DNA from: Candidatus Aenigmatarchaeota archaeon
Lineage (GTDB): Archaea; Aenigmatarchaeota; Aenigmatarchaeia; CG10238-14; SpSt-28
DNA: 64,000 nt
Direction of reading: 5' to 3'
NCBI GenBank assembly: GCA_039000985.1
Contig: JAWBMD010000004.1
Span: forward strand, 2,345-66,344
A program made the translations under genes and the position numbers. Shown here piece by piece: positions 1-17,757 of this stretch (position 1 is its first letter; each line of letters starts with the position of its first letter). The notes under the pieces are model-generated. The model searched no databases, was not told where the DNA came from, and saw only the letters and a program-made list of their open reading frames with translations.

Positions 1-1
1 T

Positions 2-730
2 ATAGATTTTGGTGGATATCCAGAAATTATTTTGCATGAGGAAAAAAATAAAAAGCTAGATATTGCAAAAACTTATTTCGATGCAATTTTTTTCAAAGAT
101 ATAATAGAAAGATTTAAAATTAAAAATGTCGCACTTATGGATTATTTTGTTAGATATTGCATATCTAATTCCTCCTCTTATGTTTCAATATCAAAAATTG
201 AAAATGAATTGAAATCAATAGGTTTTAAAGTTAGTAAAAAAACTCTAGCTAATTATTTAAAATACGCAGAAGAGGCTCTTTTTGTTTTCCCTATAAAAAG
301 ATTTTCTTTTAAATATAGAGAAAGAGCAAAATATCCAGTAAAAAGTTATTTGGTTGATAATATATACTTTCAAATTGAGCCAAGATTTTCTAAAGATGTT
401 GGTAAAAAAATTGAAAATTTAGTTGCTATACAGCTTTTAAAGAAAAAACTTGAAGGAAAAGTTAATGAAATTTTTTATTTTAAATCAAATGATTATGAAG
501 TTGATTTTTTAATTAAAAATGGTTTAGAAATAAAGCAATTAATTCAAGTAACTTATGCTTCTAGTAAAGATGAAATTGAAAAAAGAGAAATAAAAGCTTT
601 GTTAAAAGCTAGTGAGCTATTAAAATGTGAAAACTTGTTAATAATTACCTGGGACTATGAAGATGAATTGAAAATTGAAAATAAAAGTATTAAATGTATT
701 CCTTTATGGAAATGGTTATTAGAAACTTAA
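2..730 (+). CDS. COG1373-type AAA+ ATPase paralog 1 (5' end outside the window)
   Basis: The frame is open from nt 2 (IDFGGYPEII...), matching the GGFPE motif found ~200 aa into paralogs 2-6. The last ~80 aa are near-identical to the other paralogs. Confidence 0.8.
   Translation: MDFGGYPEIILHEEKNKKLDIAKTYFDAIFFKDIIERFKIKNVALMDYFVRYCISNSSSYVSISKIENELKSIGFKVSKKTLANYLKYAEEALFVFPIKRFSFKYRERAKYPVKSYLVDNIYFQIEPRFSKDVGKKIENLVAIQLLKKKLEGKVNEIFYFKSNDYEVDFLIKNGLEIKQLIQVTYASSKDEIEKREIKALLKASELLKCENLLIITWDYEDELKIENKSIKCIPLWKWLLET
485..730 (+). repeat. Shared 3' module, copy 1 (codes SNDYEVDFLIKNGLEIKQLIQVTYASSKDEIEKREIKALLKASELLKCENLLIITWDYEDELKIENKSIKCIPLWKWLL)
   Basis: By-eye nt alignment with 1910-2152 and 7375-7605. 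One ~77-nt stretch is identical to copy 6, third codon positions included. Confidence 0.9.
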
Positions 731-732
731 AG

Positions 733-751
733 TTGTTCTATTAGAGAACAA
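733..751 (+). other. Perfect 7-bp stem, 5-nt loop hairpin (TTGTTCT-ATTAG-AGAACAA) just after the stop of paralog 1
   Basis: The inverted repeat is read directly from the sequence. A terminator or processing role is speculative. Confidence 0.3.
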
Positions 752-798
752 TTTCATATGAAAATTGTTTTGATATAGTACAGTTTTTTTTATATTCA

Positions 799-826
799 TC
801 GGTCAAACATTTAAATATTTGACCGA
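799..826 (+). promoter_or_regulatory. Perfect 9-bp inverted repeat (TCGGTCAAA-N10-TTTGACCGA) bracketing a TATA-like TTTAAATA box upstream of paralog 2
   Basis: The palindrome arms flank the TTTAAATA box (811-818), which sits ~21-28 nt upstream of the ATG at 839. This geometry fits a leaderless archaeal promoter. Confidence 0.35.
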
Positions 827-838
827 TATATATTAATT

Positions 839-2152
839 ATGAATGAAGAAAAAATAATGGAAATTATGTCAGATTGGAATTATTGGGGTAATTATCAAAA
901 GGAATTTATAGAAAGAAAAGATTATCAGTATAAAATAGAGAATCTTTCCAAAGGAAATGAGATAATAGTTATAAAGGGTATTAGAAGGGGTGGAAAATCT
1001 TCTATTTCTTACTTTTTTCTCAAAAAACTTATAAATTCTGGATTAAATCCAAGAAAAATCATAATTATTAATTTTGAAGATCCAAGACTTCCGCCAGTTT
1101 TAACTTTAAGCGAAGTTAATAAGATATTTGAAACTTATTTGAAAAAAGTAGAAAACAGGCCGGAATACGTTATGTTGGATGAAGTTCAATATGTGGAAAG
1201 ATGGGAAAAATTTGCAAGGTTTTTGACAGAAGCGAAAAATATAAAAGTGATTGTTACTGGCTCGTCTTCAAAACTCATGAGTGAAGAATATGTTACTGTT
1301 TTAACCGGTAGGCATGTGGATATCGAAGTGTTTCCGTTATCGTTTAGAGAGTTTCTTCATTTTAAAGGATTAAAAATAGAGGAAGAAATTGAAATGATAA
1401 AAAAAAGAATAGAGATTAAAAGACTTTTGGATGAGTATTTAGAGTGGGGAGGTTTCCCCGAGGTAACTCTTGCAGAAAACAAAGAGAGAAAAATGGAATT
1501 ATTAAAAATATATTTTAACGATATTTTGCTTAAGGATGTGGTTAAAAGATATAAAATAAAGAAAGTTATTGAAATAGAAAATCTGGCAAAACTTTACATT
1601 TCAAACATTTCAACTATTCAATCCTTTCACAAACTAAAAGAAATTCTAAATATAAGTTTAGATAGTGTTGAAAGATTTTCTAAGCATCTATTAACTGCAA
1701 GGCTCTTTCTCTTCTTAGATAATTTTAGTCCTTCCATAAAAACACAAATTAGAAGCAAAAAGAAAGTTTATACAATTGATTTGGGATTTTATAAAATGCA
1801 TGGATTTAGACTTAGCGAAAATATAGGAAGAATAATGGAAAATGTTGTTATGTTACATTTAGCTAGAAAAATGGAGTTTCATCCACTTTTGAAATTTTTT
1901 TATTTTAGGTCAAATGATTATGAAGTTGATTTTTTAATTAAAAATGGTTTAGAAATAAAGCAATTAATTCAAGTAACTTATGCTTCTAGTAAAGATGAAA
2001 TTGAAAAAAGAGAAATTAAAGCTTTGTTAAAAGCAAGTGAATTATTAAAATGTGAAAACTTGTTAATAATAACTTGGGATTATGAAGATGAACTAAAAGT
2101 TAATAATAAAAAGATTAAATGTATTCCTTTATGGAAATGGTTACTATCTTAG
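839..2152 (+). CDS. COG1373-type AAA+ ATPase paralog 2 (AAA_14 + DUF4143-like + conserved C-terminal module)
   Basis: Walker A GIRRGGKSS, Walker B MLDEVQ, GGFPEV motif, and the shared C-terminal module. Confidence 0.85.
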   Translation: MNEEKIMEIMSDWNYWGNYQKEFIERKDYQYKIENLSKGNEIIVIKGIRRGGKSSISYFFLKKLINSGLNPRKIIIINFEDPRLPPVLTLSEVNKIFETYLKKVENRPEYVMLDEVQYVERWEKFARFLTEAKNIKVIVTGSSSKLMSEEYVTVLTGRHVDIEVFPLSFREFLHFKGLKIEEEIEMIKKRIEIKRLLDEYLEWGGFPEVTLAENKERKMELLKIYFNDILLKDVVKRYKIKKVIEIENLAKLYISNISTIQSFHKLKEILNISLDSVERFSKHLLTARLFLFLDNFSPSIKTQIRSKKKVYTIDLGFYKMHGFRLSENIGRIMENVVMLHLARKMEFHPLLKFFYFRSNDYEVDFLIKNGLEIKQLIQVTYASSKDEIEKREIKALLKASELLKCENLLIITWDYEDELKVNNKKIKCIPLWKWLLS

Positions 2153-2191
2153 CAATATAACCACAAGCTTTTTAAAAATGTTTGTGATTAT
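1910..2191 (+). repeat. Shared 3' module, copy 2, extending 42 nt past the stop codon
   Basis: The coding part aligns with copies 1 and 6. The post-stop 42 nt (2150-2191) recur at 4898-4939 with 2 mismatches. Confidence 0.9.
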
Positions 2192-2197
2192 AATATT

Positions 2198-3487
2198 ATG
2201 AACATTGAAGAAATTAAAAGAGTTATAGTAGCTCAAAAAGAAGAAGTTGAGGAAAAATTTAAGAAAACGAAAATAATTAAAAGAGAAGCTGATAAGAATA
2301 AGCTGAAAAAGTATCTGTTACATCCAAATATATTAGCGATTTTGGGAATTAGAAGATGTGGGAAATCAATTTTTTCATTACAAATTTTTGAAGGAGAAAA
2401 ATATGGATATATAAATTTTGATGATGAAAGACTAACAGAATTTACGACAAAAGATTTTGAGAAATTGCTACAAAGCTTTTATGAACTATATGGAGAAATA
2501 GATCATATAATTTTGGATGAACCACATAATATACATGCTTGGGAGCTTTTTACTAATAGATTGAGAAGAACAAAAAAGGTTATAATTACTGGAAGTAATT
2601 CAAAGCTTTTATCTGGCGAATTAGCAACTCATTTAACTGGAAGATATATTGATTTTACTTTGTTTCCATTTAGCTTTAGGGAGTTTTTACAATATAATGA
2701 TATAATTTTTGAGAACGAAAACCTTTACTCAACAAAAAGATTGGCTCTTGTAAAAAATAGTCTTAACAACTATCTAAAAATTGGTGGTCTCCCAGAGGCT
2801 TATTTATTTGGAAAAGAAATTCTTGTGAGAATTTTTTCTGATATAGTCGAAAAGGATATTTTGAAAAGATTAAAAATAAAGAAGAAAGCTACATTTAAAG
2901 AGCTTGCAAAATATTTAATAGCAAATTCTTCATCAGAAACAACATTTTCTAAATTGAGAAATATTTTCAATATAAAAGATTTACATACTATAAAAGATTG
3001 GATAAATGAGATGGAAAATGCGTATCTAATAAAACTTATTAACAGATTTTCTCCTAAGTTAAAAGAACAATTTATTGCACCAAAAAAAGTTTATTGCATT
3101 GATGTCGGAATTGTTAATGTGATTGGATTTAAGATTACTCAAAACATAGGCAGACTTATGGAGAATTTAGTAGCTATAGAGCTTCTTAGAAAAAAAAGTT
3201 ATTGGTTTGATGATTGGGAAATTTTTTATTGGAAAGACTACCAGCAAAATGAAGTGGACTTTATTGTAAAAGAAGGATTAAATATTAAACAACTGATTCA
3301 AGTAACTTATGCTTCTAGCAAAGATGAAATTGAAAAAAGAGAAATAAAAGCTTTAGTTAAAGCTTCTGAGCAATTAAAATGCAAAGATTTATTAATAATT
3401 ACTTGGGATTATGAAGATGAATTAAAAGTGAATAGCAAAAAAATTAAATGCATTCCTTTGTGGAAATGGCTGTTAAGCTTAGCATAA
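2198..3487 (+). CDS. COG1373-type AAA+ ATPase paralog 3
   Basis: Walker A GIRRCGKSI, Walker B ILDEPH, GGLPEA motif, and the shared C-terminal module (variant ASEQLKCKDLL / KVNSKKIKC). Confidence 0.85.
   Translation: MNIEEIKRVIVAQKEEVEEKFKKTKIIKREADKNKLKKYLLHPNILAILGIRRCGKSIFSLQIFEGEKYGYINFDDERLTEFTTKDFEKLLQSFYELYGEIDHIILDEPHNIHAWELFTNRLRRTKKVIITGSNSKLLSGELATHLTGRYIDFTLFPFSFREFLQYNDIIFENENLYSTKRLALVKNSLNNYLKIGGLPEAYLFGKEILVRIFSDIVEKDILKRLKIKKKATFKELAKYLIANSSSETTFSKLRNIFNIKDLHTIKDWINEMENAYLIKLINRFSPKLKEQFIAPKKVYCIDVGIVNVIGFKITQNIGRLMENLVAIELLRKKSYWFDDWEIFYWKDYQQNEVDFIVKEGLNIKQLIQVTYASSKDEIEKREIKALVKASEQLKCKDLLIITWDYEDELKVNSKKIKCIPLWKWLLSLA
3224..3487 (+). repeat. Shared 3' module, copy 3
   Basis: The 5' block (FYWKDYQQNEVDF) matches copy 5, the middle block matches copy 4, and the 3' block matches copy 2. 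Confidence 0.85.
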
Positions 3488-3562
3488 GAAAGTGTGTAGT
3501 TTTCGAATTTAAAGCTGTATAATTTAAAATATGTCACAAATGACGTAAAATATTAATTTTTT

Positions 3563-4900
3563 ATGTCACAAATGATATATATGAAGAAAGAGGAAATAAT
3601 AAATGTGTTATCTCAGGTTAATTTTTGGGGAAGAGAAAATATAGATGTGGGGATAGAGAGAAAATTCTATAATCCTCGAATATTAAATTTTTTAAAAGGT
3701 GTTGAAAAGGTATTAACAATAATTGGAGTTAGAAGAAGTGGAAAGAGTTATATATTAAAACAGATTGGAAAAAAGTTATCAGAAGAGTTTGGAAAAGAAA
3801 ATGTTCTTTATGTTAATTTTGAGGAGGTTAAGTTTTTTGAGGAGCTAAGCTTATCTTTTTTAATAAAAATATACGATGCTTTTAAAGAGATTGTGAGACC
3901 AAAAACAAAACCTTTTTTAATTTTGGATGAAATCCAAGAAGTTCCAAAATGGGAAAAGTTTGTTAGAAGTTTGCATGAAAAAAAGGAAGCTTTTCTTATA
4001 ATTTCCGGCTCTTCCTCTAAGCTTTTTAGCGAGGAACTTGCTACTTTATTAGCTGGTAGAGAATTAGAGATAGAAGTATTTCCATTGGATTTTAAAGAGT
4101 TTCTCCAGTTTAAAAATTTTGAGATAGAAAAGGAAATAGATTTAATTATAAAAAAAGAAAAAATTATAAGATTTCTTAGAGAATTTTTAGAATTCGGTGG
4201 TTTTCCAGAGGTTGTTTTAGAAGAAAATGAAAACAAGAAAATTGGTATTATTAGAAAATATTTTGATACAATAGTATTAAAAGATGTTTTAAGAAGGTTT
4301 AAATTAAAAGAAAGTTATAAGTTAGAAGCGCTTTGTAATTATTATGTTTCAAACTTTTCAAACTTAATAACTTTTAATTCTGTTGCGAGATTTCTTAAAA
4401 TTTCTGAAAAAACTACTGAAAGATTTTCAAAATATTTGCAGATTGCCAGAATTATATTTTTTGTTGAGAGATTTTCATATTCTTTTAAGTCAAGATATAA
4501 ATCTGCTAGGAAAGTTTATGTTATAGATACTTCCTTTTCGAATTTATTAGGAGTAAGGTTTTCAGAAAATATAGGCAGACTTATGGAGAATTTAGTTGCT
4601 ATAGAATTGCTAAGAAGAGCGAAAAGAAGTTTAAAAGAAAATTTCTTTTATTTAAAAATTAATGACAGCGAAGTAGACTTTGTAATTAAAGAAGGTTTAG
4701 AAATAAAGCAATTAATTCAAGTAACTTATGCTTCTAGCAAAGATGAAATTGAAAAAAGAGAAATAAAAGCATTAATTAAAGCTTCCGAGCAATTGAAATG
4801 CAAAGATTTATTAATAATAACTTGGGATTGTGAAGATGAATTGAAAATTGAAAATAAAAGTATTAAATGTATTCCTTTATGGAAATGGTTGCTATCATAG
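3563..4900 (+). CDS. COG1373-type AAA+ ATPase paralog 4 (the ATG at 3581, MKKEEII, may be the true start)
   Basis: Walker A GVRRSGKSY, Walker B ILDEIQ, GGFPEV motif, and the shared C-terminal module. Confidence 0.85.
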   Translation: MSQMIYMKKEEIINVLSQVNFWGRENIDVGIERKFYNPRILNFLKGVEKVLTIIGVRRSGKSYILKQIGKKLSEEFGKENVLYVNFEEVKFFEELSLSFLIKIYDAFKEIVRPKTKPFLILDEIQEVPKWEKFVRSLHEKKEAFLIISGSSSKLFSEELATLLAGRELEIEVFPLDFKEFLQFKNFEIEKEIDLIIKKEKIIRFLREFLEFGGFPEVVLEENENKKIGIIRKYFDTIVLKDVLRRFKLKESYKLEALCNYYVSNFSNLITFNSVARFLKISEKTTERFSKYLQIARIIFFVERFSYSFKSRYKSARKVYVIDTSFSNLLGVRFSENIGRLMENLVAIELLRRAKRSLKENFFYLKINDSEVDFVIKEGLEIKQLIQVTYASSKDEIEKREIKALIKASEQLKCKDLLIITWDCEDELKIENKSIKCIPLWKWLLS

Positions 4901-4939
4901 CAACATAACTACAAGCTTTTTAAAAATGTTTGTGATTAT
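4670..4939 (+). repeat. Shared 3' module, copy 4, extending 42 nt past the stop codon
   Basis: The middle block matches copy 3 and the 3' block matches copies 1, 5 and 6. The post-stop segment 4898-4939 matches 2150-2191. Confidence 0.9.
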
Positions 4940-4993
4940 TAGAGTTTCCCGTTATAGGTAAACTTTTTAAATAATCTTTCCTAAATATATGAT

Positions 4994-6271
4994 ATGTTTG
5001 AAAAGGATTTTGTGCTTCAATATTTCAACAAACTAATGGAAAAAATTAAAACAGAAAGGATTTTTGAAAGAGAATTAAAGGTTGATTTTCTTAAAAATAA
5101 AGCTATAGCAATAATTGGGCCAAGAAGATCTGGGAAAACTTATTTTTTACTCAACATTTTAAGAAACAATAAAAACACTTTGTATGTTGATTTGGAACAT
5201 TCTGCCTTTAGAGAAATCACACATAAAGAATTCTTTGAAATAATATCAATTTTTGAAGAATACTTTAAAGCTAAAGTTGAAAAAGTGATTATTGATGAAA
5301 TACAAAACTTAAATAACTGGGAAAGTTTAGTGAGAAGTTTACTTGATAGTGGATATTATTTGATGTTTTCTGGCTCCTCTTCAAAATTGTTAAGCAAGGA
5401 AATTGCAACCCAATTAAGAGGGAGAAGCATAACTTATTTTTTATTACCCCTAAGCTTTAGAGAGTATCTTGAGTTTAAAAATATAGAAAGAAAAAAACTT
5501 TTCTCAATTTCAGAAAAGGTGAAGATAATTAAATTTTTAGAAGAATTCATAGAATGGGGTAGTTATCCTGAAATATTAGCTTATCCTGAGAAAAAGGAAA
5601 AAATTTTGAAAGAATATTTTGATACAATTTTTCAAAAAGATTTTATAGAAAGATTTGAAATAGTACATACTTACATTGCAAAATTGCTTTTTGAATTCAT
5701 TTTACAAAATTTTTCAAAAGAAATAAGTTTAAACAAAATATCAAACTTTATTTCTTCAAAAATTGGGAAGAATGTTAAAAACATTGTTTATGATTATGCA
5801 GAAAAATTGCCAGAAAGCTTGAGTGTGTTTTTTGTAGAGAAATTTAGCAAAAGCGTTTATGAAAGAAAATCATTAGGAAGAAAGGTTTATGTTTGCGATT
5901 TGGGTTTAGTATCCATGCTAAGTATGGAAAGAAATATAGGTAAAAGAATGGAAAACACGGTCTTTCTCGAGTTATTGAGAAAAACAAACATCATTCCACA
6001 ACAAGAGATTTTTTATTGGAAGGATTACCAGCAAAATGAAGTGGATTTTGTTATAAAGGAAGGATTAAATGTTAAGCAATTAATTCAAGTTACTTATGTA
6101 AACAATAAAGATGAAATTGAAAAAAGAGAAATTAAAGGTTTGTTAAAAGCTAGCGAGCTATTAAAATGTGAAAACTTGCTAATAATAACTTGGGACTATG
6201 AAGATGAATTAAAAATTGAAAATAAAAGTATTAAATGTATTCCTTTATGGAAATGGTTATTGGAGCAGTAA
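4994..6271 (+). CDS. COG1373-type AAA+ ATPase paralog 5
   Basis: Walker A GPRRSGKTY, Walker B IIDEIQ, GSYPEI motif, and the shared C-terminal module. Confidence 0.85.
   Translation: MFEKDFVLQYFNKLMEKIKTERIFERELKVDFLKNKAIAIIGPRRSGKTYFLLNILRNNKNTLYVDLEHSAFREITHKEFFEIISIFEEYFKAKVEKVIIDEIQNLNNWESLVRSLLDSGYYLMFSGSSSKLLSKEIATQLRGRSITYFLLPLSFREYLEFKNIERKKLFSISEKVKIIKFLEEFIEWGSYPEILAYPEKKEKILKEYFDTIFQKDFIERFEIVHTYIAKLLFEFILQNFSKEISLNKISNFISSKIGKNVKNIVYDYAEKLPESLSVFFVEKFSKSVYERKSLGRKVYVCDLGLVSMLSMERNIGKRMENTVFLELLRKTNIIPQQEIFYWKDYQQNEVDFVIKEGLNVKQLIQVTYVNNKDEIEKREIKGLLKASELLKCENLLIITWDYEDELKIENKSIKCIPLWKWLLEQ
6011..6271 (+). repeat. Shared 3' module, copy 5
   Basis: The 5' block matches copy 3. The middle and 3' blocks match copies 1 and 6. 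Confidence 0.85.
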
Positions 6272-6354
6272 ATATAGCTTCTTGCAACAAATAATAAAAA
6301 TTATGTAAAGTTAACTGAACAAAAAATTTAAATTTTATTCACTATACTTAATTT

Positions 6355-7605
6355 ATGAGAGAAATATTGGAAAGGCAAAAAACTGAAGCTAAGGAAATTT
6401 TATCAAAAGAAATCATTCCAAGAGAAAATATTAAAAATATAGAAAAATATATAGAAAAACCTTTAATAAAAGTCATTACAGGTATAAGAAGAAGTGGAAA
6501 ATCTTTGTTGGCACTATTGCTTATTAAAGATAAAAACTATGGATATGTAAATTTTGACGAGAAAGAGTTAAGTACAATAAAATTAGATGATTTGCTGAAT
6601 TATTTAAAAGAAGTATTTGGTGATTTTAAATTTCTGCTCCTTGATGAGATTCAAAATATTGATGGATGGGAACTTTGGGTCAATAGCTTGCAAAGAAGAG
6701 GTTATAATGTTTTAATCACAGGCTCAAATGCAAAGCTTTTAAGCAAAGAATTAGCTACACATTTAACTGGAAGATATGTAGAATTTGAAAATTTTCCATT
6801 TAGCTTTAGAGAGTTTTTAGTATTTAAAAAATTTGACACTAATAACTTACTCTTTTTGAAAGAAAAACAAGGCTTAATAAAGAATTTACTAATGGAATAT
6901 TTAGAAAGGGGTGGTTTTCCAGAATATTTGGTTCATAATTTAGATAAAAATTACTTGGAAACACTTTTTCACTCTATAATTTACAAAGATGTTGTTAAAA
7001 GATGGAATATAAAATATCCTAGAAAAATAGATGATTTAGCAAAATATATAATTTCGAACTATTCCTCGCAATATACTTTTACTAAACTAAAAAATTCTTT
7101 AAATTTTAGAAGTGTTCTAACAGTTGAAAACTACATGAAATATTTAGAAGAAGCATACTTAATATTTTCACTTGAAAGATTCTCATTTAAAGTTAAAGAA
7201 ATGAAAAAATCGCCAAAAAAAGTTTATTGTATTGATACTGGTATAATAAATGCCATTTCTGTAAAATTTTCAAAAGAAATTGGAAAATTAATGGAAAATC
7301 TTGTATTTTTAGAACTTAAAAGAAAAGGATTAAAAGAAAACTTTTCAATATTTTATGGTCAGTTTAATAATAACGAGGTTGATTTTTTAATTAAAAATGG
7401 TTTAGAAATAAAGCAATTAATTCAAGTAACTTATGCTTCTAGTAAAGATGAAATTGAAAAAAGAGAAATTAAAGCTTTGTTAAAAGCAAGTGAATTATTA
7501 AAATGTGAAAACTTGTTAATAATTACCTGGGACTATGAAGATGAATTGAAAATTGAAAATAAAAGTATTAAATGCATACCTTTATGGAAATGGTTATTAG
7601 TATGA
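6355..7605 (+). CDS. COG1373-type AAA+ ATPase paralog 6
   Basis: Walker A GIRRSGKSL, Walker B LLDEIQ, GGFPEY motif, and the shared C-terminal module. Its stop overlaps the next gene's ATG (ATGA at 7602-7605). Confidence 0.85.
   Translation: MREILERQKTEAKEILSKEIIPRENIKNIEKYIEKPLIKVITGIRRSGKSLLALLLIKDKNYGYVNFDEKELSTIKLDDLLNYLKEVFGDFKFLLLDEIQNIDGWELWVNSLQRRGYNVLITGSNAKLLSKELATHLTGRYVEFENFPFSFREFLVFKKFDTNNLLFLKEKQGLIKNLLMEYLERGGFPEYLVHNLDKNYLETLFHSIIYKDVVKRWNIKYPRKIDDLAKYIISNYSSQYTFTKLKNSLNFRSVLTVENYMKYLEEAYLIFSLERFSFKVKEMKKSPKKVYCIDTGIINAISVKFSKEIGKLMENLVFLELKRKGLKENFSIFYGQFNNNEVDFLIKNGLEIKQLIQVTYASSKDEIEKREIKALLKASELLKCENLLIITWDYEDELKIENKSIKCIPLWKWLLV
7375..7605 (+). repeat. Shared 3' module, copy 6
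   Basis: Its middle part matches copy 2 at the nt level and its distal part matches copy 1, giving a mosaic. Confidence 0.9.
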
Positions 7606-8934
7606 GTGAGAAAGAATTACTTAAATTAATAAAAGAAGGTGAATCGGAAACAACAGAGTTAAAGTTAAAGGTTGATGAAGAACTTGGAAAAGTTATCTGT
7701 GTTTTTGCCAATAGTAAAGGGGGAGTTATTTTAGTTGGAGTTAACAATGGATGAAGAGAAAATTGCAAACATAGCAAGCTCGTGCATACCACCAATAAGG
7801 GTGAAAACTAAAAAAATGTTGTTAAAAATTATTGTACCAAAAACTAATGAAATACATTCTTTCAAGAATATAGTATATATTGGGGTAGCTTCCAGTAATA
7901 GAGCCTTAGCTCCAAATGAAATTATTAACCTAGCTCAAAAGCTTGGAAAAGTTTACTGGAATTCTTTAATTTGTGAAGAAGCTACTTTGAAAGATATTGA
8001 TGAAGAAAAAGTTAGATGGTTTTTAAGAAAAGCCAAAATAGAAAGAAGTTTTGACATAGATTTTGAAACTCCAGTTAAAGAAGCTTTGGAGAGGCTAGGA
8101 TTAATAAAAAATGGGAAATTAACAAACGCTGCTATTTTATTATTCGGAAAAAATCCTGAGAAATTCTTTTTGCAGGCTGAAACAAGATGCGCTCGCTTCA
8201 AGGGAACTAGACCAATAGAGTTTTTGGATATGAAGGTTTTTGGTGGAAACATTATAGATCAAATTGAGAAAGCATTGAACTTTGTTCTTGAACATATTTC
8301 AATGAGAATCGAAATTAAGGGCAAAGCAGAAAGAGAGGAAATATATGAATATCCACCAGATGCTATAAGAGAAGCTATTGTAAATGCAATTTGTCATAGA
8401 GATTATACCATACCTTCTAACGTTCAAATTAGAATTTTTGATGATAGAATTGAAGTATGGGGATGTGGACCTTTGCCAGAACCTTTGAAACCTGAAGATT
8501 TTAAAGGAAGACACAAATCAATTTTAAGGAATCCTTTAATTGGTAGGTCTTTCTTTTTAATTAAGTTCATAGAAGAATGGGGAACTGGTACAAATAGAAT
8601 GATTGAAGCCTGCTTAAAACATGGTATACCCGAGCCTGAATTTGATATGGTTGAAGGAAACCTTGTTGTTACTTTCAGAAAGGATATTTATACCGAAGAT
8701 TATTTAAGAGAGTTAGGACTAAAAGAAAGGCAAATAAAAGCAATTAATTATATTAAAGAAAAGGGAAGAATAACAAGGGCAGAGTATGTGAAATTATGCG
8801 GATGTTCTGAAAGAACAGCTCTTAATGACCTTGTAGAGTTGGTTAATAAAAATATTCTTGTTAGGGCTGGTGAGGGTAAAAAAACTTACTATATCTTGCG
8901 CGCAAAAAGGAGCTTGAAAAGAGACAATAGATGA
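7602..8934 (+). pseudogene. COG2865-type protein (AlbA_2/Schlafen-like N-domain + HATPase_c_4 + C-terminal wHTH), interrupted by a frameshift near 7735-7754
   Basis: The N-terminal part (MSEKELLKLIKEGESETTELK...VFANSKGGVILVGVNNG) stops at 7752-7754. The domain continues in another frame (DEEKIANIASSCIPP...). The C-terminal part carries REAIVNAICHRDY and a wHTH. The break is not at a homopolymer. Confidence 0.7.
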
Positions 8935-11447
8935 TTATGAGAAAACCAGAAAAATTGACTAAAACAGTATTAATTGAAATTAGACAAAAACTCTTAACAA
9001 AACTTAACATAGTACTAATTTTAATTTTTTTCATTCACAAAACAGTTATTGTAAATACTCAATTTTTAGACCCAACAAAACAATTTAACCAAACTTCTTC
9101 AATAAACATAACTGGATATGCTTCTACAATTCTTCAATCAGAAATAGATTCAGCATTAAATATTAATTCAGATGGCTTAACTTGGGATGTTACTGAAGCT
9201 GATGTTACTCCACCTTTTCTTGGTCCGACAATATTCACTACTCATCAGGTCGAATCTTTATCCGTTACTCCTCTAGATTCTAATAGAATAATTTTAGCTT
9301 GGTGTGATGAAGTAAGCAAATCAATAAACTTTAAAATTTACTCTACAACAGGAGAAGTTTTAGTTGATACAGTAACAGTTGATACAAGTCCCGGAATAAC
9401 AAATGCATGTGATTATAATTCTGTTTCTGTTTCAGCTTTAAATTCAACTCATTTTGTAATAGCTTGGTTTGATGCTAGCGAACAAGATGTTTCGTTTGCT
9501 ATCTATAATTATTTAGGAAATTTGAATATTGGACCAATAGATGAAGATACGGCTGTAGGAACAAATAGTTGGGGCGTTTCTGTTTCAGCTTTCAATTCAA
9601 CTCATATTGTCATTGGATATTATGATTATGTAGATCAAGACGCTACCTTCTCAACTTGGAATTTGGTTACACAAACAAGAGTTGCTAGACCTATAGATGT
9701 TGATACAGCTGTTGGTGCAGATAGCTACAATGTTCATGTAGCAGCCTTGAATTCTACTCATTTTGTTTTTTTCTATTATGATGCTGGAGCTACTGACGAT
9801 GCAACCTTTGCTATATATACAATAACAGGAAATGTTGTAATAGCAGCTACAGACGAAGATACAAACATAGGAAATTCTTATTCTTTAGCTTCAACTGTTC
9901 TAAACTCGAGTTATTTTGTTCTTGCCTATTATGATGCTGTGGATGCAGATATTACTTTTTCTATTTATAATAGTGCTGGAACAAGAGTTGTTGGTCCAAT
10001 AGATGAAGATATAGATGTGGGGACAAGCGGAGCTTTTGTCTCTGTATCGGCTTTGAATTCAACTCACTTCGTGATAGCTTATTATGATACTATAGATGGT
10101 CAACATACTTTTTCAATTTATAACTGGAATACAAGGATTGTCGGACCTGTAGATGTTAGCAATGTAGCATCTGGTTTAAAATGGCTATCCGTTTCTTCTT
10201 ATCTTGCTGGAATTAATTTGGGGATTTGTAACCAAAATTTCGTCTTTGCAGAAGTTAATGCAACAAACAGTGCAAGATTTTTCACTTATACTCCATCTGG
10301 GACAGCATGGAACGGCTACTGCTCACCGATTTATCAAGTAACTGTTGAACATAATTCAACTATAAGCTATGTTGGAAATTTGGTTAGTTTGAATGTTTCG
10401 ATAAACTTCACTTCTACTGTTGATGATTTATATAATATGAGTATTTACGATTTTGTTAATTCAAGATGGGATTCTTCTCAATGCCAAAATATTTCGGTTA
10501 CTGCTGGTAATTATTATTTGATTTGGTGCAATATTACTACTAATCCAACAAACTATGTATCTGGAAATATAGTAGCAATAAGACTTAATTCTTCAATAGA
10601 TACAGATAAGGGAACTTTGAAAGAAGAATATGTTCAATTTTATGTTGGTTATTCTGTTGGATATTTAGAAGTTGAATTAGTACAACCAAATCCTTTAACA
10701 ATTACATACATAATACAAAACAACACATTCATAGTTAATTCTACAGTATATTGTAGAAATGCGCCTTGTGGTGATGTTTATGGTACATTAATGTACAACC
10801 TATCTTCTCCTTATCCTGATACACCAATAAACACAAGCTATGGTGATAAACCATTTTTTATAAATGAAACCCCGGCACAAGCAACAAAAGCTTGCCCGAA
10901 CAATCCTTTAAATGCAAATGATTTTTGTAATTTAACATGGATTATTAATGCTAGCGGAGAAATAAATACTAATTGGAAAATTGGTGTATTATTTAATTCA
11001 TCATTTGCTGATGTTGAAAAAAATCATACATCAAATGCAACAATTTCAATAGTTGGTTGTACAATATCTTTTACTTTACAATTTTCAACAATAGATTTTG
11101 GAAATCTTTTACCAAGAACATATAATAACTCCGCAATTGGAAACTCAAACAATTTATATAATATTACTGTGAATGAAGGTAGTTGTAATTTAAATTTATA
11201 TATTAATGGAACAGACCTTGTAAATCAAACATTTAATTCTTTTATTAAAGTTGGAAATATTAGTTGGAGTAACATAAGTAGTAATATGGATGATGGATAC
11301 TTTCCTTTATCTTATTCAGAATCTCTTATAAGAGCAAATGTCCCTGCAAACACAAATGTAACAACATGGTATTGGATAAATGTACCATCTGTATATGCTG
11401 GTATTTACAAAGGAAACATAAGTATAAAAGCAGAAAGAAGTAGCTAA
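8931..11447 (+). CDS. Large membrane-anchored or secreted surface protein with seven ~50-aa repeats and a sequon-rich, Cys-containing C-terminal half
   Basis: N-terminal hydrophobic helix (LNIVLILIFFI). Seven repeats of consensus vSVSALNSTHFVIAyYD..d.d.tFsIYn..g..v.gPiDeDt.vG. More than 30 N-x-S/T sequons counted by eye. ATGA overlap with the upstream gene. Confidence 0.75.
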   Translation: MIMRKPEKLTKTVLIEIRQKLLTKLNIVLILIFFIHKTVIVNTQFLDPTKQFNQTSSINITGYASTILQSEIDSALNINSDGLTWDVTEADVTPPFLGPTIFTTHQVESLSVTPLDSNRIILAWCDEVSKSINFKIYSTTGEVLVDTVTVDTSPGITNACDYNSVSVSALNSTHFVIAWFDASEQDVSFAIYNYLGNLNIGPIDEDTAVGTNSWGVSVSAFNSTHIVIGYYDYVDQDATFSTWNLVTQTRVARPIDVDTAVGADSYNVHVAALNSTHFVFFYYDAGATDDATFAIYTITGNVVIAATDEDTNIGNSYSLASTVLNSSYFVLAYYDAVDADITFSIYNSAGTRVVGPIDEDIDVGTSGAFVSVSALNSTHFVIAYYDTIDGQHTFSIYNWNTRIVGPVDVSNVASGLKWLSVSSYLAGINLGICNQNFVFAEVNATNSARFFTYTPSGTAWNGYCSPIYQVTVEHNSTISYVGNLVSLNVSINFTSTVDDLYNMSIYDFVNSRWDSSQCQNISVTAGNYYLIWCNITTNPTNYVSGNIVAIRLNSSIDTDKGTLKEEYVQFYVGYSVGYLEVELVQPNPLTITYIIQNNTFIVNSTVYCRNAPCGDVYGTLMYNLSSPYPDTPINTSYGDKPFFINETPAQATKACPNNPLNANDFCNLTWIINASGEINTNWKIGVLFNSSFADVEKNHTSNATISIVGCTISFTLQFSTIDFGNLLPRTYNNSAIGNSNNLYNITVNEGSCNLNLYINGTDLVNQTFNSFIKVGNISWSNISSNMDDGYFPLSYSESLIRANVPANTNVTTWYWINVPSVYAGIYKGNISIKAERSS
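9258..10316 (+). repeat. Seven tandem intragenic protein repeats (period ~50-53 aa), consistent with a 7-bladed beta-propeller
   Basis: Repeat starts were read at aa 110, 165, 215, 268, 319, 370 and 419 of the 838-aa ORF. Confidence 0.7.
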
Positions 11448-11525
11448 AAAAAGATTACTTTGAATTAACAATTGACAATAAAATAATAATCAATAATCAA
11501 AAGAATAATTATAACAAAATTTTAA

Positions 11526-11883
11526 GAAGCTGAAATTTTAAAAGAAAAAGCTCTTTAATTCCTAGAGACAGCAAAATATTTATTAAAAAAGAAAAACTTT
11601 GATTTGGCTGCATTTAATCTTGAGCAATTTTTTCACCTCTATTTAAAACATAAATTATTTCTTCTTTTTAGAGATTTCCCAAAAACACATTCGATTACCT
11701 TTCTCCTAAGAGAGCTTCTAAAAATTAGAAAAAAAGACTGAAATTAAAAATTTTTAAACGAAAACATAACCATAATCAAAAATTTGGAAAATGCCTATAT
11801 TTCATCAATTTGAGAAAGCTGAAGTTGCAAAAAGTTTAAAGAATTTGTTGATAAGCTATGAAAAGCTTCTTACAAGTGCTTAG
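11526..11883 (+). pseudogene. Decayed HEPN-domain gene (partner of the downstream MNT)
   Basis: The translation reads ...FLETAKYLLKKKNFDLAAFNLEQFFHLYLKHKLFLLFRDFPKTHSITFLLRELL...NLENAYISS. This has HEPN-like helices and a decayed R-x4-6-H region. It is broken by in-frame TAA/TGA stops (the first at 11556-11558) plus a frameshift before the tail FEKAEVAKSLKNLLISYEKLL. Confidence 0.6.
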
Positions 11884-12205
11884 CGAAATTGAAAGAGAAA
11901 ACAAGAAATATTTTAAGAATTATATAAAATATGCAAAAATTGCTAAAGTAGTTAGCAAAAGAGAGCTGGGTGGGGTGAAAGTTTTTGTTTTTGGTTCAGT
12001 TATAGAAGGACTAGCAACTCCGGCTAGTGATATAGATTTACTCATAGTTTCAAAAAATATGCCAAGTTTGATGAATGAACGAGCAAAATTAAGTGTAAAA
12101 ATTCTAAAGAAAATTGGTTTACTTTCATCTTTTGAAATTCACTTAGTAAATGAAAGAGAATTTGAATGGTATAAAAGATTTATAAAAAGAAAAATTGAAA
12201 TTTAA
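11858..12205 (+). CDS. Minimal nucleotidyltransferase (MNT, pol-beta superfamily)
   Basis: GS...D-x-D motif: FGSVIEGLATPASDIDLLIV. The size is 115 aa. It overlaps the end of the HEPN remnant. Confidence 0.8.
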   Translation: MKSFLQVLSEIERENKKYFKNYIKYAKIAKVVSKRELGGVKVFVFGSVIEGLATPASDIDLLIVSKNMPSLMNERAKLSVKILKKIGLLSSFEIHLVNEREFEWYKRFIKRKIEI

Positions 12206-12436
12206 GAAGCCTGTTCCACTAAAATTTGTGACTTGAAGTATTCTTGACCCTTTACTTGATTGCAACATTGAATAATCGGTAACTCGAGTTTTAACACTTT
12301 GCCTCCAAAAGACTTATCCTAAATATATCAAACATTTATCTAGAGAAAGAAACTAGCAACATTGAAATTTCTACAAGCTAAAATATAGTAACTAATTCAA
12401 AAGTATTCCACATGTGGGGCATAGTAGAAATAGAAT

Positions 12437-12511
12437 TGCCCCCACCGGGATTTGAACCCGGAATCTTTGCCTCCGCAGGGCAACGTTTTATCCAAATTAA
12501 ACTATAGGGGC
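12437..12511 (-). tRNA. tRNA-Arg (anticodon GCG)
   Basis: Hand-folded cloverleaf: acceptor GCCCCTA/TGGGGGC, D stem GTTT/AAAC, anticodon stem TTGCC/GGCAA with loop CTGCGGA, T arm CCGGG-TTCAAAT-CCCGG, discriminator A. CCA is not encoded. Confidence 0.9.
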
Positions 12512-12543
12512 TTAAATTTATTTTTGAAAAGCAAGATTAAATC

Positions 12544-13641
12544 ATGGAAAAAGTTACGATATCAGCAATAAAAGCCGATATAGGAGCTGTAGGTGGGCAT
12601 ACAAAACCGAGTAAAGAAGTTTTGGAAGAAATAATATCAACAGTAAAAGAAAGGAAAGATTTAATAAGAGATTTTTATGTTGGATTTTGTGGAGATGATA
12701 TTCACATAATAATGACACATTTCAATGGAATAAATAACCCAGAAGTACATAAATTGGCATTTGATGCTTTTGTTAATGCAACAGAAATAGCTAAGGAACA
12801 AGGACTATATGGGGCTGGTCAAGATATATTAAAAACAGCATTTTCTGGAAATGTAAAAGGTATGGGGCCCGGGGTTGCTGAAATGGAATTTGTTGAAAGG
12901 CCAAATGAAGCTGTTATTGTATTTCCAGCAGATAAAACCGAACCTGGTGCTTTCAATTTACCTTTATACTATGCATTTGTAGAAGTTTCAAGAAGTCCTG
13001 GATTAATTTTAAGTCCATCAATGAGAAAAGGTGTAAAATTTGTTATAATGGATGTTAGCTATACAGAAAGAGATAAAATAATAGAGCTTTTCACTCCGGA
13101 AAACTACATAGATATTGCTTCCTTGCTTTTCAATCCACATAGATTTGTTGTTGAATCGATTTGGCTAAGAGAAAATAATGAACCAATTGTTTCTGTAAGC
13201 ACAACAAGATTGCATAATATAGCTGGTAGATATGTTGGTAAAGATGACCCTATAATGATAGCTAGAGCACAAAAACCATTTTTAGCTACAGAAGAAATTT
13301 GCTCAGTTTTTGCAATAGCTCATTATGTTGGAGGAGATACGAGAGGTTCTCATAACATGGCATTAATGCCAGTAAAGCTAAATTCTCAAGCATCAACATA
13401 CTTATGCAATCCGATGGTTAGCTGTTTAGTAATGTCGATAAAAAATGGAAAAATAACTTCTTACATAGATGGATTTGATGATCCAATATTTGAAGAAGTT
13501 AGAAGAAAGGCTACAGGAAAATCATTTTATATGAGGGAACAAGGATTTATTATGCCAGCAATGTTACCCATGGAGGAAATAGAATATACCGCATTAAAAG
13601 AAAAAATAGAAGAACTAGAAAAGAAATTCATATTGAGGTGA
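12544..13641 (+). CDS. fbp: Fructose-1,6-bisphosphate aldolase/phosphatase (class V FBPase)
   Basis: The N-terminus ISAIKADIGAVGGHTKPS and the 365-aa length are typical of the archaeal bifunctional enzyme. Confidence 0.85.
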   Translation: MEKVTISAIKADIGAVGGHTKPSKEVLEEIISTVKERKDLIRDFYVGFCGDDIHIIMTHFNGINNPEVHKLAFDAFVNATEIAKEQGLYGAGQDILKTAFSGNVKGMGPGVAEMEFVERPNEAVIVFPADKTEPGAFNLPLYYAFVEVSRSPGLILSPSMRKGVKFVIMDVSYTERDKIIELFTPENYIDIASLLFNPHRFVVESIWLRENNEPIVSVSTTRLHNIAGRYVGKDDPIMIARAQKPFLATEEICSVFAIAHYVGGDTRGSHNMALMPVKLNSQASTYLCNPMVSCLVMSIKNGKITSYIDGFDDPIFEEVRRKATGKSFYMREQGFIMPAMLPMEEIEYTALKEKIEELEKKFILR

Positions 13642-14879
13642 AATTAGAATTTTTAGGAGCTTTGAATTGCATAGGAGCCTCGGCAGTTCATGTAAATACT
13701 GAAAAAATATCTTTATTGCTAGATTATGGTGCTAAAACAAGAGAAAAACCACCAAAACCACCTTTACCAATAAAGGGAAAAGTAGATTTTACATTTCTAA
13801 CACATGCTCATTTAGACCATTCTGGATTTTTACCAACTATTACTAAAAAATTCAATTCTTTTGTTTATTGTACAGATATTACAATGGAGCTTACAGAATT
13901 ACTTTTACTTGATAGCATAAAAATTAGTAAGGAAGAAAATTTTGAATTGCCGTTTAATAAAAAAGATATAACTGAGTTAAAAAGAAAAACTGTTTTTATA
14001 GAATATGATACAGAATATTATTTTGATAATGTAATGGTTAAATTTTTAGATGCTTGCCATATTCCTGGCTCTTCTCAAATATTAATAGAATTTAAAAACA
14101 AGAAAATTTTATATACTGGAGATTTCAACACAATAGAAACTAGGTTAATTAAAGCTAAAAAAGTAAAAGTAGAAAATCCAAATGCTTTAATAATTGAAAG
14201 CACTTACCATGATAGAGAGCATGAAAAAAGAGAAAAAGAAGAAAAAAGATTAGTTGAAATAGTAGAAAAAACAGTTGAAAATGGTGGAATTTGCTTAATA
14301 CCTGCTTTTGCAGTTGGAAGAGCACAAGAAGTTTTTTCAATTTTAACAAAAGAAAAAGTTCAATGCCCAATTTATATAGATGGAATGGCAAAAAGAGCAA
14401 CAATAATCATAAACAAGTATAAAAAATATTTGAAAGAAAAAGATATTATTGATAAAGCTTTAAAAAGTATTGAATTCGTGAATAAAAATAAAAGAAAAAA
14501 AGTACTAAAAGAAAAAAGCTGTGTAATAATTTGTGGTAGCGGATTTTTAGATGGTGGTATGGCAGAATTTTATTTCAAGAAAATAAAAGATGATGAAAAA
14601 AATAGTGTTGTTTTTGTTGGTTATCAAGTAAAAGATAGTAAAGGTAGAAAAGTTTTGGAAGAGAAAAAATACGAAAATGAAAAAGTGAAAGCTTTTGTAG
14701 AGAAAGTTGATTTGAGTGCACATGCGGGTAGAAAAGAATTATTAGAATTCATAAAAGATAATAATCCTGAAAAAGTTTTTTGCGTTCATGGTGAAAACAT
14801 AGATAGTTTTGTTAAAGAATTAAATGAAATGGGATTTGATGCAATTAATCCTTTAGAAGAAAAAGTTTATTCAATATGA
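13638..14879 (+). CDS. Metallo-beta-lactamase / beta-CASP family ribonuclease (aCPSF2-like)
   Basis: HAHLDH motif, DACHIPGS, ESTY, SAHAG and VHGE motifs. GTG start overlaps the fbp stop (GTGA). Confidence 0.75.
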   Translation: MKLEFLGALNCIGASAVHVNTEKISLLLDYGAKTREKPPKPPLPIKGKVDFTFLTHAHLDHSGFLPTITKKFNSFVYCTDITMELTELLLLDSIKISKEENFELPFNKKDITELKRKTVFIEYDTEYYFDNVMVKFLDACHIPGSSQILIEFKNKKILYTGDFNTIETRLIKAKKVKVENPNALIIESTYHDREHEKREKEEKRLVEIVEKTVENGGICLIPAFAVGRAQEVFSILTKEKVQCPIYIDGMAKRATIIINKYKKYLKEKDIIDKALKSIEFVNKNKRKKVLKEKSCVIICGSGFLDGGMAEFYFKKIKDDEKNSVVFVGYQVKDSKGRKVLEEKKYENEKVKAFVEKVDLSAHAGRKELLEFIKDNNPEKVFCVHGENIDSFVKELNEMGFDAINPLEEKVYSI

Positions 14880-15100
14880 ATAAATTACCTTTACATACAT
14901 TAAAGAACTTTTGCAAAAGTCTTGGTGCAAAAAGAGTTTCAAAGGAATTTTTACTAGAGCTTGAAAAAATTTTAATCGAGGATTTAGAAAAAATAGTTTT
15001 ATTAGCTATTGAATTCTCAAAAAACGAAAAAAGAAATACAATTTTGGAAAGAGATGTAGAAATGGCGATAAAAGAAATTATAAAAGAGGAAAATCTTTAA
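14876..15100 (+). CDS. Archaeal histone-fold protein
   Basis: 74 aa. LGAKRVSKEFLLELEKILIEDLEKIVLLAIEFSKNEKRNTILERDVEMAI matches the HMf-type pattern. Confidence 0.6.
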   Translation: MNKLPLHTLKNFCKSLGAKRVSKEFLLELEKILIEDLEKIVLLAIEFSKNEKRNTILERDVEMAIKEIIKEENL

Positions 15101-16924: not shown

Positions 16925-16954
16925 AATAAAATTTTTATTTAAATAAAATTAATT

Positions 16955-17473: not shown

Positions 17474-17757
17474 GTAGTAGCTTCCTCTTCTTCTATTTTT
17501 TCTGCACTAGGTATTTCTACATGCTTTATTATTACTATATCCCCAATAGCTCTAACCATTGAATAAGGGACTATTACTCCTTTTTTGCTACCAAGTATTT
17601 TTGAAAACAAACCTTCTTTACTTATTTCAACAACAATCGACCTTATTCTATACTTACTTAAATCAAGCTCAACATCACTAACCCTACCAGCATAATAACC
17701 TTTTTCTGTAAAAACTTCTCTTGCCATTAAATCCATTATGTTTTGAGTTGATACCAT
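17458..17757 (-). CDS. PRC-barrel domain protein
   Basis: Small beta-barrel pattern (GYYAGRVSDVELDLSKYRIRSIVVE). Confidence 0.45.
   Translation of the reverse strand: MVSTQNIMDLMAREVFTEKGYYAGRVSDVELDLSKYRIRSIVVEISKEGLFSKILGSKKGVIVPYSMVRAIGDIVIIKHVEIPSAEKIEEEEATTQGSV

Follow-up and report, generated by a model that had tools for sequence, protein, structure and literature searches.

Six tandem genes of the COG1373 family, here called c1 to c6, occupy positions 1-7605 of the + strand in a 64,000-nucleotide (nt) stretch of contig JAWBMD010000004.1 from a hot-spring DPANN archaeon of the Candidatus Aenigmatarchaeota (the whole stretch is hereafter called the window). The last 75 codons of these genes, from E-V-D-F to W-L-L, have had a history of their own, unlike that of the remaining sequence; we call these codons the “tail” and the remainder of the gene the “body”. 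Our analyses make it likely that the locus is an array of anciently diverged COG1373/PDC-S01 paralogs in which the last 75 codons have been exchanged among the copies by homologous recombination, and which possibly serves antiviral specificities.

The genes were taken from the list of open reading frames (ORFs) and their Pfam matches. They agree with an earlier note on this DNA, which had described six same-strand tandem genes with short spacers, the first of them cut by the window edge: the ORFs run from 2 to 7605, and the spacers, 108, 45, 75, 93, and 83 bp from c1 to c6, fall within 45-108 bp. Each gene, the common 3′ tract that contains its tail, and the spacer that follows are given below, with the support for each; dS denotes synonymous divergence and PHI the pairwise homoplasy index.

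2..730, + strand: c1, 3′ part only (242 codons; the window starts within the gene); DUF4143 match
497..730, + strand: common 3′ tract of c1, from E-V-D-F to the stop; codon alignment
731..838, + strand: spacer c1-c2, with a TATA-like box ~30 nt upstream of the ATG; pattern match
839..2152, + strand: c2, 437 residues (aa); an AAA_14 ATPase with a helical and winged-helix part and a C-terminus of PD-(D/E)XK-like type
1922..2152, + strand: common 3′ tract of c2; 146-nt exact run with c6
2153..2197, + strand: spacer c2-c3, with a TATA-like box at -29; pattern match
2198..3487, + strand: c3, 429 aa; Pfam and PADLOC matches
3251..3487, + strand: common 3′ tract of c3, the most divergent tail; dS 1.0-1.7 versus c1, c2, c5, and c6
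3488..3562, + strand: spacer c3-c4, with a TATA-like box at -41; kept 5′ of c4-type bodies in L014 and L001
3563..4900, + strand: c4, 445 aa; Pfam and PADLOC matches
4670..4900, + strand: common 3′ tract of c4; codon alignment, PHI, dS comparison
4901..4993, + strand: spacer c4-c5, with a TATA-like box at -30; pattern match
4994..6271, + strand: c5, 425 aa; Pfam and PADLOC matches
6038..6271, + strand: common 3′ tract of c5; codon alignment, PHI
6272..6354, + strand: spacer c5-c6, with a TATA-like box at -29; kept 5′ of the c6 ortholog in L014
6355..7605, + strand: c6, 416 aa; Pfam and PADLOC matches, AlphaFold2 model with a pLDDT (predicted local distance difference test) score of 91.7
7375..7605, + strand: common 3′ tract of c6; codon alignment, PHI, exact-run comparison

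How differently have the two parts of these genes evolved? The paralog bodies, which the earlier note had called divergent, are anciently diverged: within the window they share 33-47% protein and ~52-61% DNA identity, their nonsynonymous divergence (dN) is 0.46-0.66, their dS is saturated, and the fraction of identical residues encoded by the same codon, 0.569, is to be compared with the 0.558 expected from codon usage. In contrast, the tails of the same genes share 80-100% protein and 79-97% DNA identity, with a dN of 0-0.12 and a dS of 0.2-1.7, and their same-codon fraction is 0.763 overall (range 0.64-0.90) versus 0.546 expected. Part of the DNA identity of the tails is codon bias, because the genome has a G+C content of 26%. 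The dN/dS ratio is ~0.1 for the tails and ~0.06 for the bodies between orthologs.

The likeness among the tails is uneven. Those of c1, c2, and c6 are 93-97% identical in nucleotides (dS 0.2-0.3), the c1 tract matching that of c6 at 97% and that of c2 at 93%, and they share exact runs of 92 nt (c1-c6), 107 nt (c1-c2), and 146 nt (c2-c6). The ~77-nt identity between c1 and c6 reported in the earlier note exists, but its length was understated. The tails of c3, c4, and c5 differ by 12-21% in DNA from those of c1, c2, and c6 and from one another (dS 0.55-1.7). Near-identity extending to synonymous sites, which had been claimed for all six copies, therefore holds for c1, c2, and c6 and not for the other three. 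Of the proposed recent gene conversion confined to the 3′ end, the confinement stands and the recency holds only in part: the exchange is not uniformly recent, and a recent tract is found only in c1, c2, and c6.

In order to judge how much tail likeness the family as a whole imposes, two unbiased baselines were used. Among 72 homologs picked by their likeness to c6 over its entire length, tail identity amounts to ~1.15 times body identity (r 0.54), with tails down to 43%. Among 113 relatives recovered by a query with the c2 body only, the factor is ~1.07 (r 0.65), with tails down to 36%. Because identity is proportional in both samples, the tail evolves about as fast as the body family-wide, and the nuclease-like fold tolerates divergence, since the tails of relatives reach 36-43% identity. 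For window paralogs with bodies 33-45% identical, this relation predicts tails 35-50% identical, and 84-96% is observed. The tail likeness exceeds family-wide constraint. Across these 185 relatives, the tails track the bodies.

The comparison of orthologs reveals the opposite relation. Orthologs of c3-c6 in other Aenigmatarchaeota bins (loci outside the window are denoted by L-numbers) have bodies 86-97% identical and tails only 81-89% identical. The body and tail identities are 86% and 81% for the c3 ortholog L007_3551, 88-89% and 84-85% for the c5 orthologs, and 92% and 83% for the c6 ortholog L014_10001, while the c4 orthologs in L014 and L001 have bodies 96-97% identical with a dS of 0.28 and a tail dS of 0.9-1.1. 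Between L014 and L001, the closest species pair, the bodies have a dS of 0.09 and a dN of 0.006, and the tails a dS of 0.67-0.77 and a dN of 0.05-0.08; over the closest ortholog pairs, body dS is 0.09-0.29 versus a tail dS of 0.67-1.1. Consistently, among 29 genes drawn from seven Aenigmatarchaeota bins and compared in 406 pairs, the identity of the bodies and that of the tails are uncorrelated (Spearman -0.04, p 0.46), and the mean nucleotide identity of tails is 0.863 for ortholog pairs and 0.849 for non-orthologs. Nearest tail and nearest body point to one and the same gene in only 3 of the 29 cases. The nearest tail lies within the same genome for 14 of the 29 genes, and the nearest body for 2 of them.

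The tails are, moreover, mosaic. Every block form listed in the earlier note is present in the copies that it named, and its statement that the mosaic fits no single tree is borne out, with 344 of 703 site pairs incompatible among the 38 informative sites of the six tails. The PHI test on the tails gives p ≤0.0005 with 5, 6, or 7 copies, whereas four 225-nt chunks of the bodies give 0.17-0.41; the tails of the nine-copy array of L014 give p 0.0005-0.005. The c5 tail illustrates the pattern: its 5′ block is like that of c3, its middle block like those of c1, c2, and c6, and its 3′ block like those of c1, c4, and c6.

Which tails have moved, and by what kind of event? The c1 orthologs L008_3139 and L007_882, which are 98% identical to c1 over its 165 in-window body residues, carry the block LIKNGLEIK. 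In other genomes this block goes together with bodies of the c1 type, and it is absent from the c2 orthologs (P0122 and P0123) and from the c6 ortholog (L014_10001). Because only the c1 orthologs carry it, c2 and c6 gained the c1-type tract in this lineage; likewise, the 5′ block of c2 was acquired locally, since c2 orthologs elsewhere have another 5′ block. Smaller patches are exchanged as well. In L007_2234, an internal ELEIDNKK patch differs from that of its 99%-identical ortholog and matches the neighbouring gene. Internal patches of this kind are flanked by the gene's own sequence and are therefore a signature of conversion rather than of a contig mis-join; some exchanged patches are shorter than a sequencing read.

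Entire tails and entire cassettes also change places. Across genomes, the upstream spacer stays with the downstream body whichever tail precedes it; the c4-c5 spacer, for instance, is kept 5′ of c5-type bodies in L014 and L001 regardless of the preceding tail. Between L014 and L001, the entire tail follows the cassette downstream of it: in L014_14035 and L001_3429, the bodies are only 38% identical and the tails 93-96% identical, and both genes stand before a c4-type gene. The linkage of tail thirds to their own body or to the downstream cassette is a weak trend over all genomes (n = 8-13), and is clear only for this close pair. The gene order is c4-c5-c6 in the window, c6-c5-x-x-c4 in L014, and x-c5-c4 in L001. 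At L014 9791-10000, a c2-type spacer and the first c2 codons (ATGAATGAAGAA...) lie between two other copies and the c2 gene is missing, so that the c1-c2 spacer is retained there without its gene; this segment is a remnant of cassette loss. In the window, the first ~40 nt of the c2-c3 spacer are also found after the c4 stop codon.

The tails form a shared pool, ~15% diverged in DNA, that is shuffled more than homogenised. The within-genome tail identity is 0.89 in L014 (versus 0.82-0.84 between genomes) and 0.92 in L001. Two forms of the middle block, ALIKASEQL (serine encoded by TCN) and ALLKASELL (serine encoded by AGY), coexist in the window, L014, and L001 (alignment columns ~100-145); from their sequences, they look like old alleles retained across species. 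The survey of related genomes that the earlier note had suggested revealed arrays of 3-9 copies with the same contrast between body and tail in every Aenigmatarchaeota bin examined, and a related genome of at least 685 kb carries at least 12 copies.

Two loci of other lineages, with a G+C content of 28-31%, show comparable arrangements. L035 (10001-12600; Joint Genome Institute (JGI) contig Ga0453288_0075) has two tandem copies with bodies 35% identical and tails 85% identical in protein and 87% in nucleotides, and L029 has two tandem copies with an identical 3′ block of the tail. The contrast between body and tail may not be limited to the Aenigmatarchaeota bins.

The comparisons above give good support to an exchange of paralog tails via homologous recombination. 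Short conversion patches create the tail mosaic, and crossovers inside the tract or at its edge re-pair bodies and tails and alter the order and content of the array between genomes. The latest events in this genome have spread the c1-type tract into c2 and c6. The process may well be self-sustaining, because no other stretch would have the DNA identity needed to initiate recombination. Purifying selection, with a tail dN/dS of ~0.1, would also help keep the copies alike, as would AT-rich codon usage.

By sequence, the window genes are members of COG1373/PDC-S01, a known candidate defence family. Pfam DUF4143 matches all six copies at 57-87 bits versus a cut-off of 28.1, and Pfam AAA_14 matches the five full-length copies at 109-120 bits (E 1e-31 to 1e-34) versus a cut-off of 27. 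The PADLOC model of PDC-S01 (PDLC04787) matches the five complete copies over positions ~5-408 of 412 with E 8.7e-87 to 2.9e-118; the scores of c2 are 1.6e-32 for AAA_14, 8.8e-16 for DUF4143, and 1.3e-110 for PDC-S01. No NCBIfam model matched any copy, and a search of the PDB by sequence gave no relative (best E 0.28). The Walker A motif G-x-R-R-x-G-K-[ST] and the D-E of Walker B are invariant in the five complete copies, which also have the G-G-F-P-E motif, in c5 as G-S-Y-P-E. The c1 fragment has no ATPase part and retains G-G-Y-P-E.

PDC-S01 is a candidate that was made searchable in PADLOC, and it is the fourth commonest defence call in prokaryotes (PMC12988326; bioRxiv 10.1101/2024.01.29.577857). 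It is enriched in archaea, with 9,986 archaeal hits, and consists of an ATPase fused to a domain of the PD-(D/E)XK superfamily (PMC12988326). The window copies have the same domain content and match the profile over its full length, so the candidate class was already described (PMC12988326); the earlier note had known of no described system with this architecture. The difference lies in the organisation: PDC-S01 is described as a single-gene candidate, whereas the window and the other arrays, of 3-9 copies, hold tandem paralogs whose 3′ tract evolves separately. The literature retrieved for DUF4143, COG1373, AAA_14, PDC-S01, and gene conversion in Aenigmatarchaeota gives no account of such arrays; the word “tandem” occurs 0 times in PMC12988326, and neither PDC-S01 paper mentions arrays or a separate tail. 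Both the arrangement in arrays and a half-domain that evolves on its own are new for the family.

The AlphaFold2 model of c6 has a P-loop ATPase, a helical lid, and a winged helix between an N-terminal helix and a C-terminal alpha/beta domain. The whole model matches PAB2304 (the best group), Apaf-1, Orc1/Cdc6, STAND proteins, and Avs in the PDB. The last 114 residues, modelled alone (pLDDT 91.4), form a helix, three strands, a helix, and further strands, and match the nuclease domains of Can2 (template modelling (TM) score 0.63-0.65), McrC, Card1, EndoMS, and SfsA. In this model, the C-terminal domain has the alpha-beta-beta-beta-alpha-beta core of the PD-(D/E)XK fold, and DUF4143 has been assigned to that superfamily (PMC3424549). 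The predicted protein has four parts, an ATPase of the ORC/Cdc6-STAND P-loop type, a helical lid, a winged helix, and a C-terminus with a non-canonical PD-(D/E)XK fold.

Is the nuclease-like domain inactivated, as the earlier note had suggested? The fold is supported by the model, but the Q-V-T of the third strand is family-wide and is not an inactivation specific to the array: members 30-35% identical, from Sulfuricurvum, Acinetobacter, and Ruminococcus plasmids, also have [QN]-V-[TSA]. Within the subfamily, E314, N315, D343, R370, E371, and T391 are invariant, and K347, Q357, V358, and D393 nearly so. Inactivation is not established, because Q-V-T characterizes the family and conservation extends to many polar residues. 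Overall, the pattern described in the earlier note is well beyond chance, its claim on synonymous identity excepted; the observation is partly confirmed and its interpretation partly supported.

The exchanged tract starts at residue 341, at strand beta2 within the nuclease-fold domain, while helix alpha1 and strand beta1 of this domain belong to the divergent body. By the model, the tract is not a domain, and as it starts in mid-domain, a process at the DNA level would fit it better than a separately folding docking module. The Sulfolobus islandicus conjugative plasmid pSOG2 (L018, ~2460-2701) carries the tail part alone of a COG1373 gene, 43% identical to c6. This piece runs from Y-E-I-D-F to P-L-W-K-F-L-L, is annotated as a 60-aa hypothetical protein, and starts very nearly at the start of the exchanged tract. 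Few records of the phage collection contain the family (20 of 50,697). Of 72,556 plasmids, 258 carry it, mainly Acinetobacter plasmids with members at ~30% identity; these counts are uninformative on a virus or plasmid origin of the locus.

The fold and the family suggest that the proteins may be ATP-dependent nucleic-acid-binding switches. The divergent ATPase and winged-helix parts would then confer different specificities on a common nuclease-like output, and the array could be a panel of such specificities, possibly antiviral. PAB2304 (PDB 2qen), Orc1/Cdc6, and the STAND proteins Apaf-1 and Avs are the best structural matches to the ATPase, lid, and winged helix, but they share only 12-16% sequence identity with the window proteins. 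Unlike STAND proteins, the window proteins have no C-terminal repeat sensor (TPR, WD40, or LRR) and end in the 114-residue nuclease-fold domain. Residues 303-416 have the same predicted fold as the nuclease domains of Can2/Card1 and McrC (TM 0.58-0.65), and McrBC likewise pairs an ATPase with a PD-(D/E)XK module. In contrast to these nucleases, the window family lacks E-x-K and has D343...Q357-V-T359, R370-E371, and T391-x-D393; there is no CARF domain as in Can2/Card1 and no separate McrB-type GTPase as in McrBC.

As an array, the locus resembles other systems. The clusters of nucleotide-binding leucine-rich-repeat (NLR) genes in plants are tandem immune genes subject to concerted evolution and unequal crossing-over. 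The window array may be likened to them in its recombination through a shared segment, by analogy and not by homology. Poxvirus gene arrays (PMC6115191) are similar in that tandem paralogs recombine via a shared segment, which yields mosaics, changes in copy number, and new pairings of variable and constant parts. Polymorphic toxin loci (PMC3482391) also re-pair variable and constant parts by cassette exchange, but their constant part is N-terminal and their cassettes are silent 3′ fragments, whereas the units of the window are complete genes with their own putative promoters. Unlike integrons and shufflons, the array has no adjacent recombinase (~10 kb on each side) and no structured sites.

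Is the array itself correctly assembled? A metagenome bin of Candidatus Aenigmatarchaeota encodes a protein 100% identical to c6, and hot-spring bins of this phylum contain close relatives of c6. A 36-nt pattern from the c1 body had no match in JGI metagenomes. Three contigs of the same population, from two other assemblies, were compared with the window. L015 corresponds to window 4361-17605 with 7 mismatches, L037 to window 1-2051 with 0 mismatches, and L013 is a composite of window segments with 0-5 mismatches each. In L037, c1 is complete at 425 aa and is preceded by an extra copy, c0 (428 aa); therefore, the array has at least 7 genes in this population. The adjacencies c0-c1-c2 (L037), c2 tail-c3-c4 (L013), and c4-c5-c6-AlbA_2 (L015) recur in these assemblies at 99.9-100% identity. 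The array is real. L013 (GCA_044343585.1, JAWBZA010000008.1; 1-4320) reads c6 body::c2 tail, c3, c4 body::c6 tail, AlbA_2, with junctions at window 7547/2095 and 4776/7489, within shared runs of 146 and 44 nt; its order may reflect either a genuine swap of blocks or a mis-join made in assembly.

It is quite improbable that mis-joins or collapsed repeats created the array, the pairings, the mosaic, or the differences in order. Exact repeats of 92-146 nt do connect c1, c2, and c6, L037 ends within the 146-nt repeat of c2 and c6, L015 ends in c4, and L013 begins inside a tail and makes both of its joins exactly within shared runs. However, the bodies are unique, and each window adjacency recurs elsewhere, as described above. 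The mosaic switches several times within 225 nt, less than a read pair and often less than one read, which a mis-join in the assembly graph should be unable to create. The same pattern is found in at least 5 independent bins and in JGI contigs of other lineages (L035 and L029), and genome-specific residues (YASS versus YASN; KCKN, KCKD, or KCEN) cannot stem from mis-joins. Even less credit is due to strong family-wide purifying selection with AT-rich codons acting without recombination between paralogs, which we regard as very improbable. The tail dN/dS of ~0.1, the several pairs with a dS of at least 1, and the expected same-codon fraction of already 0.55 agree with it. So do members from other metagenomes with bodies 31-46% and tails 65-84% identical in protein, but these loci had been fetched with a 26-mer of the tail, and this first baseline was discarded as biased. 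In the two samples without this bias, tail and body diverge together, with slopes of 1.07-1.15, and the tail reaches 36-43% identity. PHI is significant in the tail only, and constraint cannot yield orthologs with a body dS of 0.09 and a tail dS of ~0.7.

It is possible but unlikely that the common tail is a selected design, needed for mixed oligomers, for one partner or substrate, or as the built-in recombination joint of an immune repertoire. This would accord with the recurrence of the arrays in every Aenigmatarchaeota bin examined and the at least 12 copies in one genome, with discrete block forms that coexist across genomes without drifting to uniformity, with a cassette order and content that vary between close relatives, and with the candidate defence status of the family (PMC12988326). 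Against it stand the start of the tract in mid-domain, which favours a process at the DNA level, the plain purifying selection on the bodies between orthologs (dN/dS ~0.06), which shows no arms-race signal, and the lack of a conserved partner gene. The more specific form of this idea, in which the tail is a selected homologous-recombination joint, maybe also a mixed-oligomer interface, and the array a recombination-driven immune-repertoire locus in a genome-reduced DPANN archaeon, seems to us distinctly unlikely. A non-coding element in the tract (an RNA structure, a recombinase site as in integrons or shufflons, or a promoter of the next gene) is extremely improbable. Every tract lies upstream of the next array gene, and c2 and c4 share the first ~40 nt after the stop. 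However, RNAalifold returned -5.4 kcal/mol and virtually no covariation for 17 tracts, the only Rfam matches in the window are two tRNAs, and an RNA or DNA element was rejected on these results. The gene tables list no integrase, transposase, or recombinase ~10 kb to either side, the TATA-like boxes lie in the spacers, outside the tract, and the variation of the tract follows codon structure.

Several observations weigh against the exchange of tails among ancient paralogs, our preferred reading, or against its functional part. Several tail pairs have a dS of at least 1, and for these, taken alone, old shared ancestry with constraint is indistinguishable from conversion. Mean tail identity is 0.84 within the window and 0.84-0.85 between the window and other Aenigmatarchaeota genomes; strict homogenisation is weak, because the two values are equal. 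Every sequence compared derives from a metagenome bin built on short reads, two other assemblies have contigs that end within or beside the array, exact repeats of up to 146 nt occur within it, and the order in L013 conflicts with the window though both come from the same population. For these reasons, some of the body-tail re-pairings and order differences may be mis-joins. As to function, the reading is drawn solely from fold and family, and PDC-S01 is itself only an unvalidated candidate (PMC12988326; bioRxiv 10.1101/2024.01.29.577857). The canonical D...(D/E)-x-K motif is absent, D343 being invariant and the third strand reading Q-V-T or Q-V-C. The flanks encode mostly housekeeping proteins (VIT1, Lactamase_B, Cdc6-like, RNase P subunits, FBPase, beta-CASP, CBS, and DCD), and the window locus has no association with known defence systems and no defence island.

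If tails are exchanged as we propose, the arrays amount to a natural domain-swap experiment on a common, archaea-enriched candidate family (PMC12988326). The part of the nuclease-fold domain that extends from strand beta2 to its C-terminus would be interchangeable between paralogs, while the N-terminal helix, the ATPase, and the winged helix would carry paralog identity. A very small DPANN genome that gives 7-12 or more genes to one family is unexpected for a lineage thought to be defence-poor, and the high copy number suggests either strong pressure from viruses and mobile elements or an overlooked housekeeping role. Should the tail instead be a selected joint, discrete tail block forms would be kept by selection, and the cell would duplicate, delete, reorder, and re-pair sensor cassettes. 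Because such repeats break or scramble short-read assemblies, the copy numbers of the family in metagenome bins are probably underestimated. On L012 (JBDRXT010000052.1; 8.5 kb), from a bin named candidate division WOR-3 bacterium, two copies have bodies 96-99% identical to copies of the Aenigmatarchaeota bin JAVYPJ; this contig is probably mis-binned.

Every array gene is intact and has its own spacer with a TATA-like box upstream. The boxes, identified by pattern match only, lie 27-41 nt 5′ of the ATG in each of c2-c6, and this spacing suggests separate, nearly leaderless transcripts for these genes. The array region has a G+C content of 26%, as does the remaining window, and the other 56 kb of the window contain no additional COG1373 copy. 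Upstream of c0, as seen in L037, are opposite-strand genes for VIT1-like, Lactamase_B, Cdc6-like, and RNase P subunit proteins. The arrays of other genomes are at other loci, that of L014 lying between Nre and ParA, and no conserved partner gene was found next to the arrays examined. The only possibly related neighbours in the window are a lone nucleotidyltransferase gene and the AlbA_2-type gene at the downstream end of the array, whose ATG overlaps the stop codon of c6 (ATGA):

7602-7754 and 7747-8934, + strand: downstream gene in two frames; AlbA_2 (Schlafen-type), HATPase_c_4, and helix-turn-helix (HTH)

The two frames look like one gene split at ATGGATGA, and the fused translation matches PF04326 across the junction. 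The gene may be a pseudogene, or the split may come from a sequencing error or from programmed frameshifting; its presence in L013 and L015 is not independent confirmation, because they belong to the same population. The co-occurrence of this gene with the arrays, raised in the earlier note, did not extend to other genomes: it is adjacent only in the loci of this population and is not beside the arrays fetched from elsewhere, and it is therefore probably outside the system.

Farther downstream, positions 11858-12205 encode a minimal nucleotidyltransferase (PF01909, 115 aa) of the kind seen in HEPN-MNT toxin-antitoxin pairs; no intact HEPN partner is beside it, only ORFs of 41-54 aa. Positions 8931-11447 encode an 838-aa protein with no Pfam match, a hydrophobic N-terminus, many ~40-residue repeats (...SVSALNSTHFVIAYYD..D..FSIYN...), and an Asn-rich C-terminal half, which by these features may be a surface protein.

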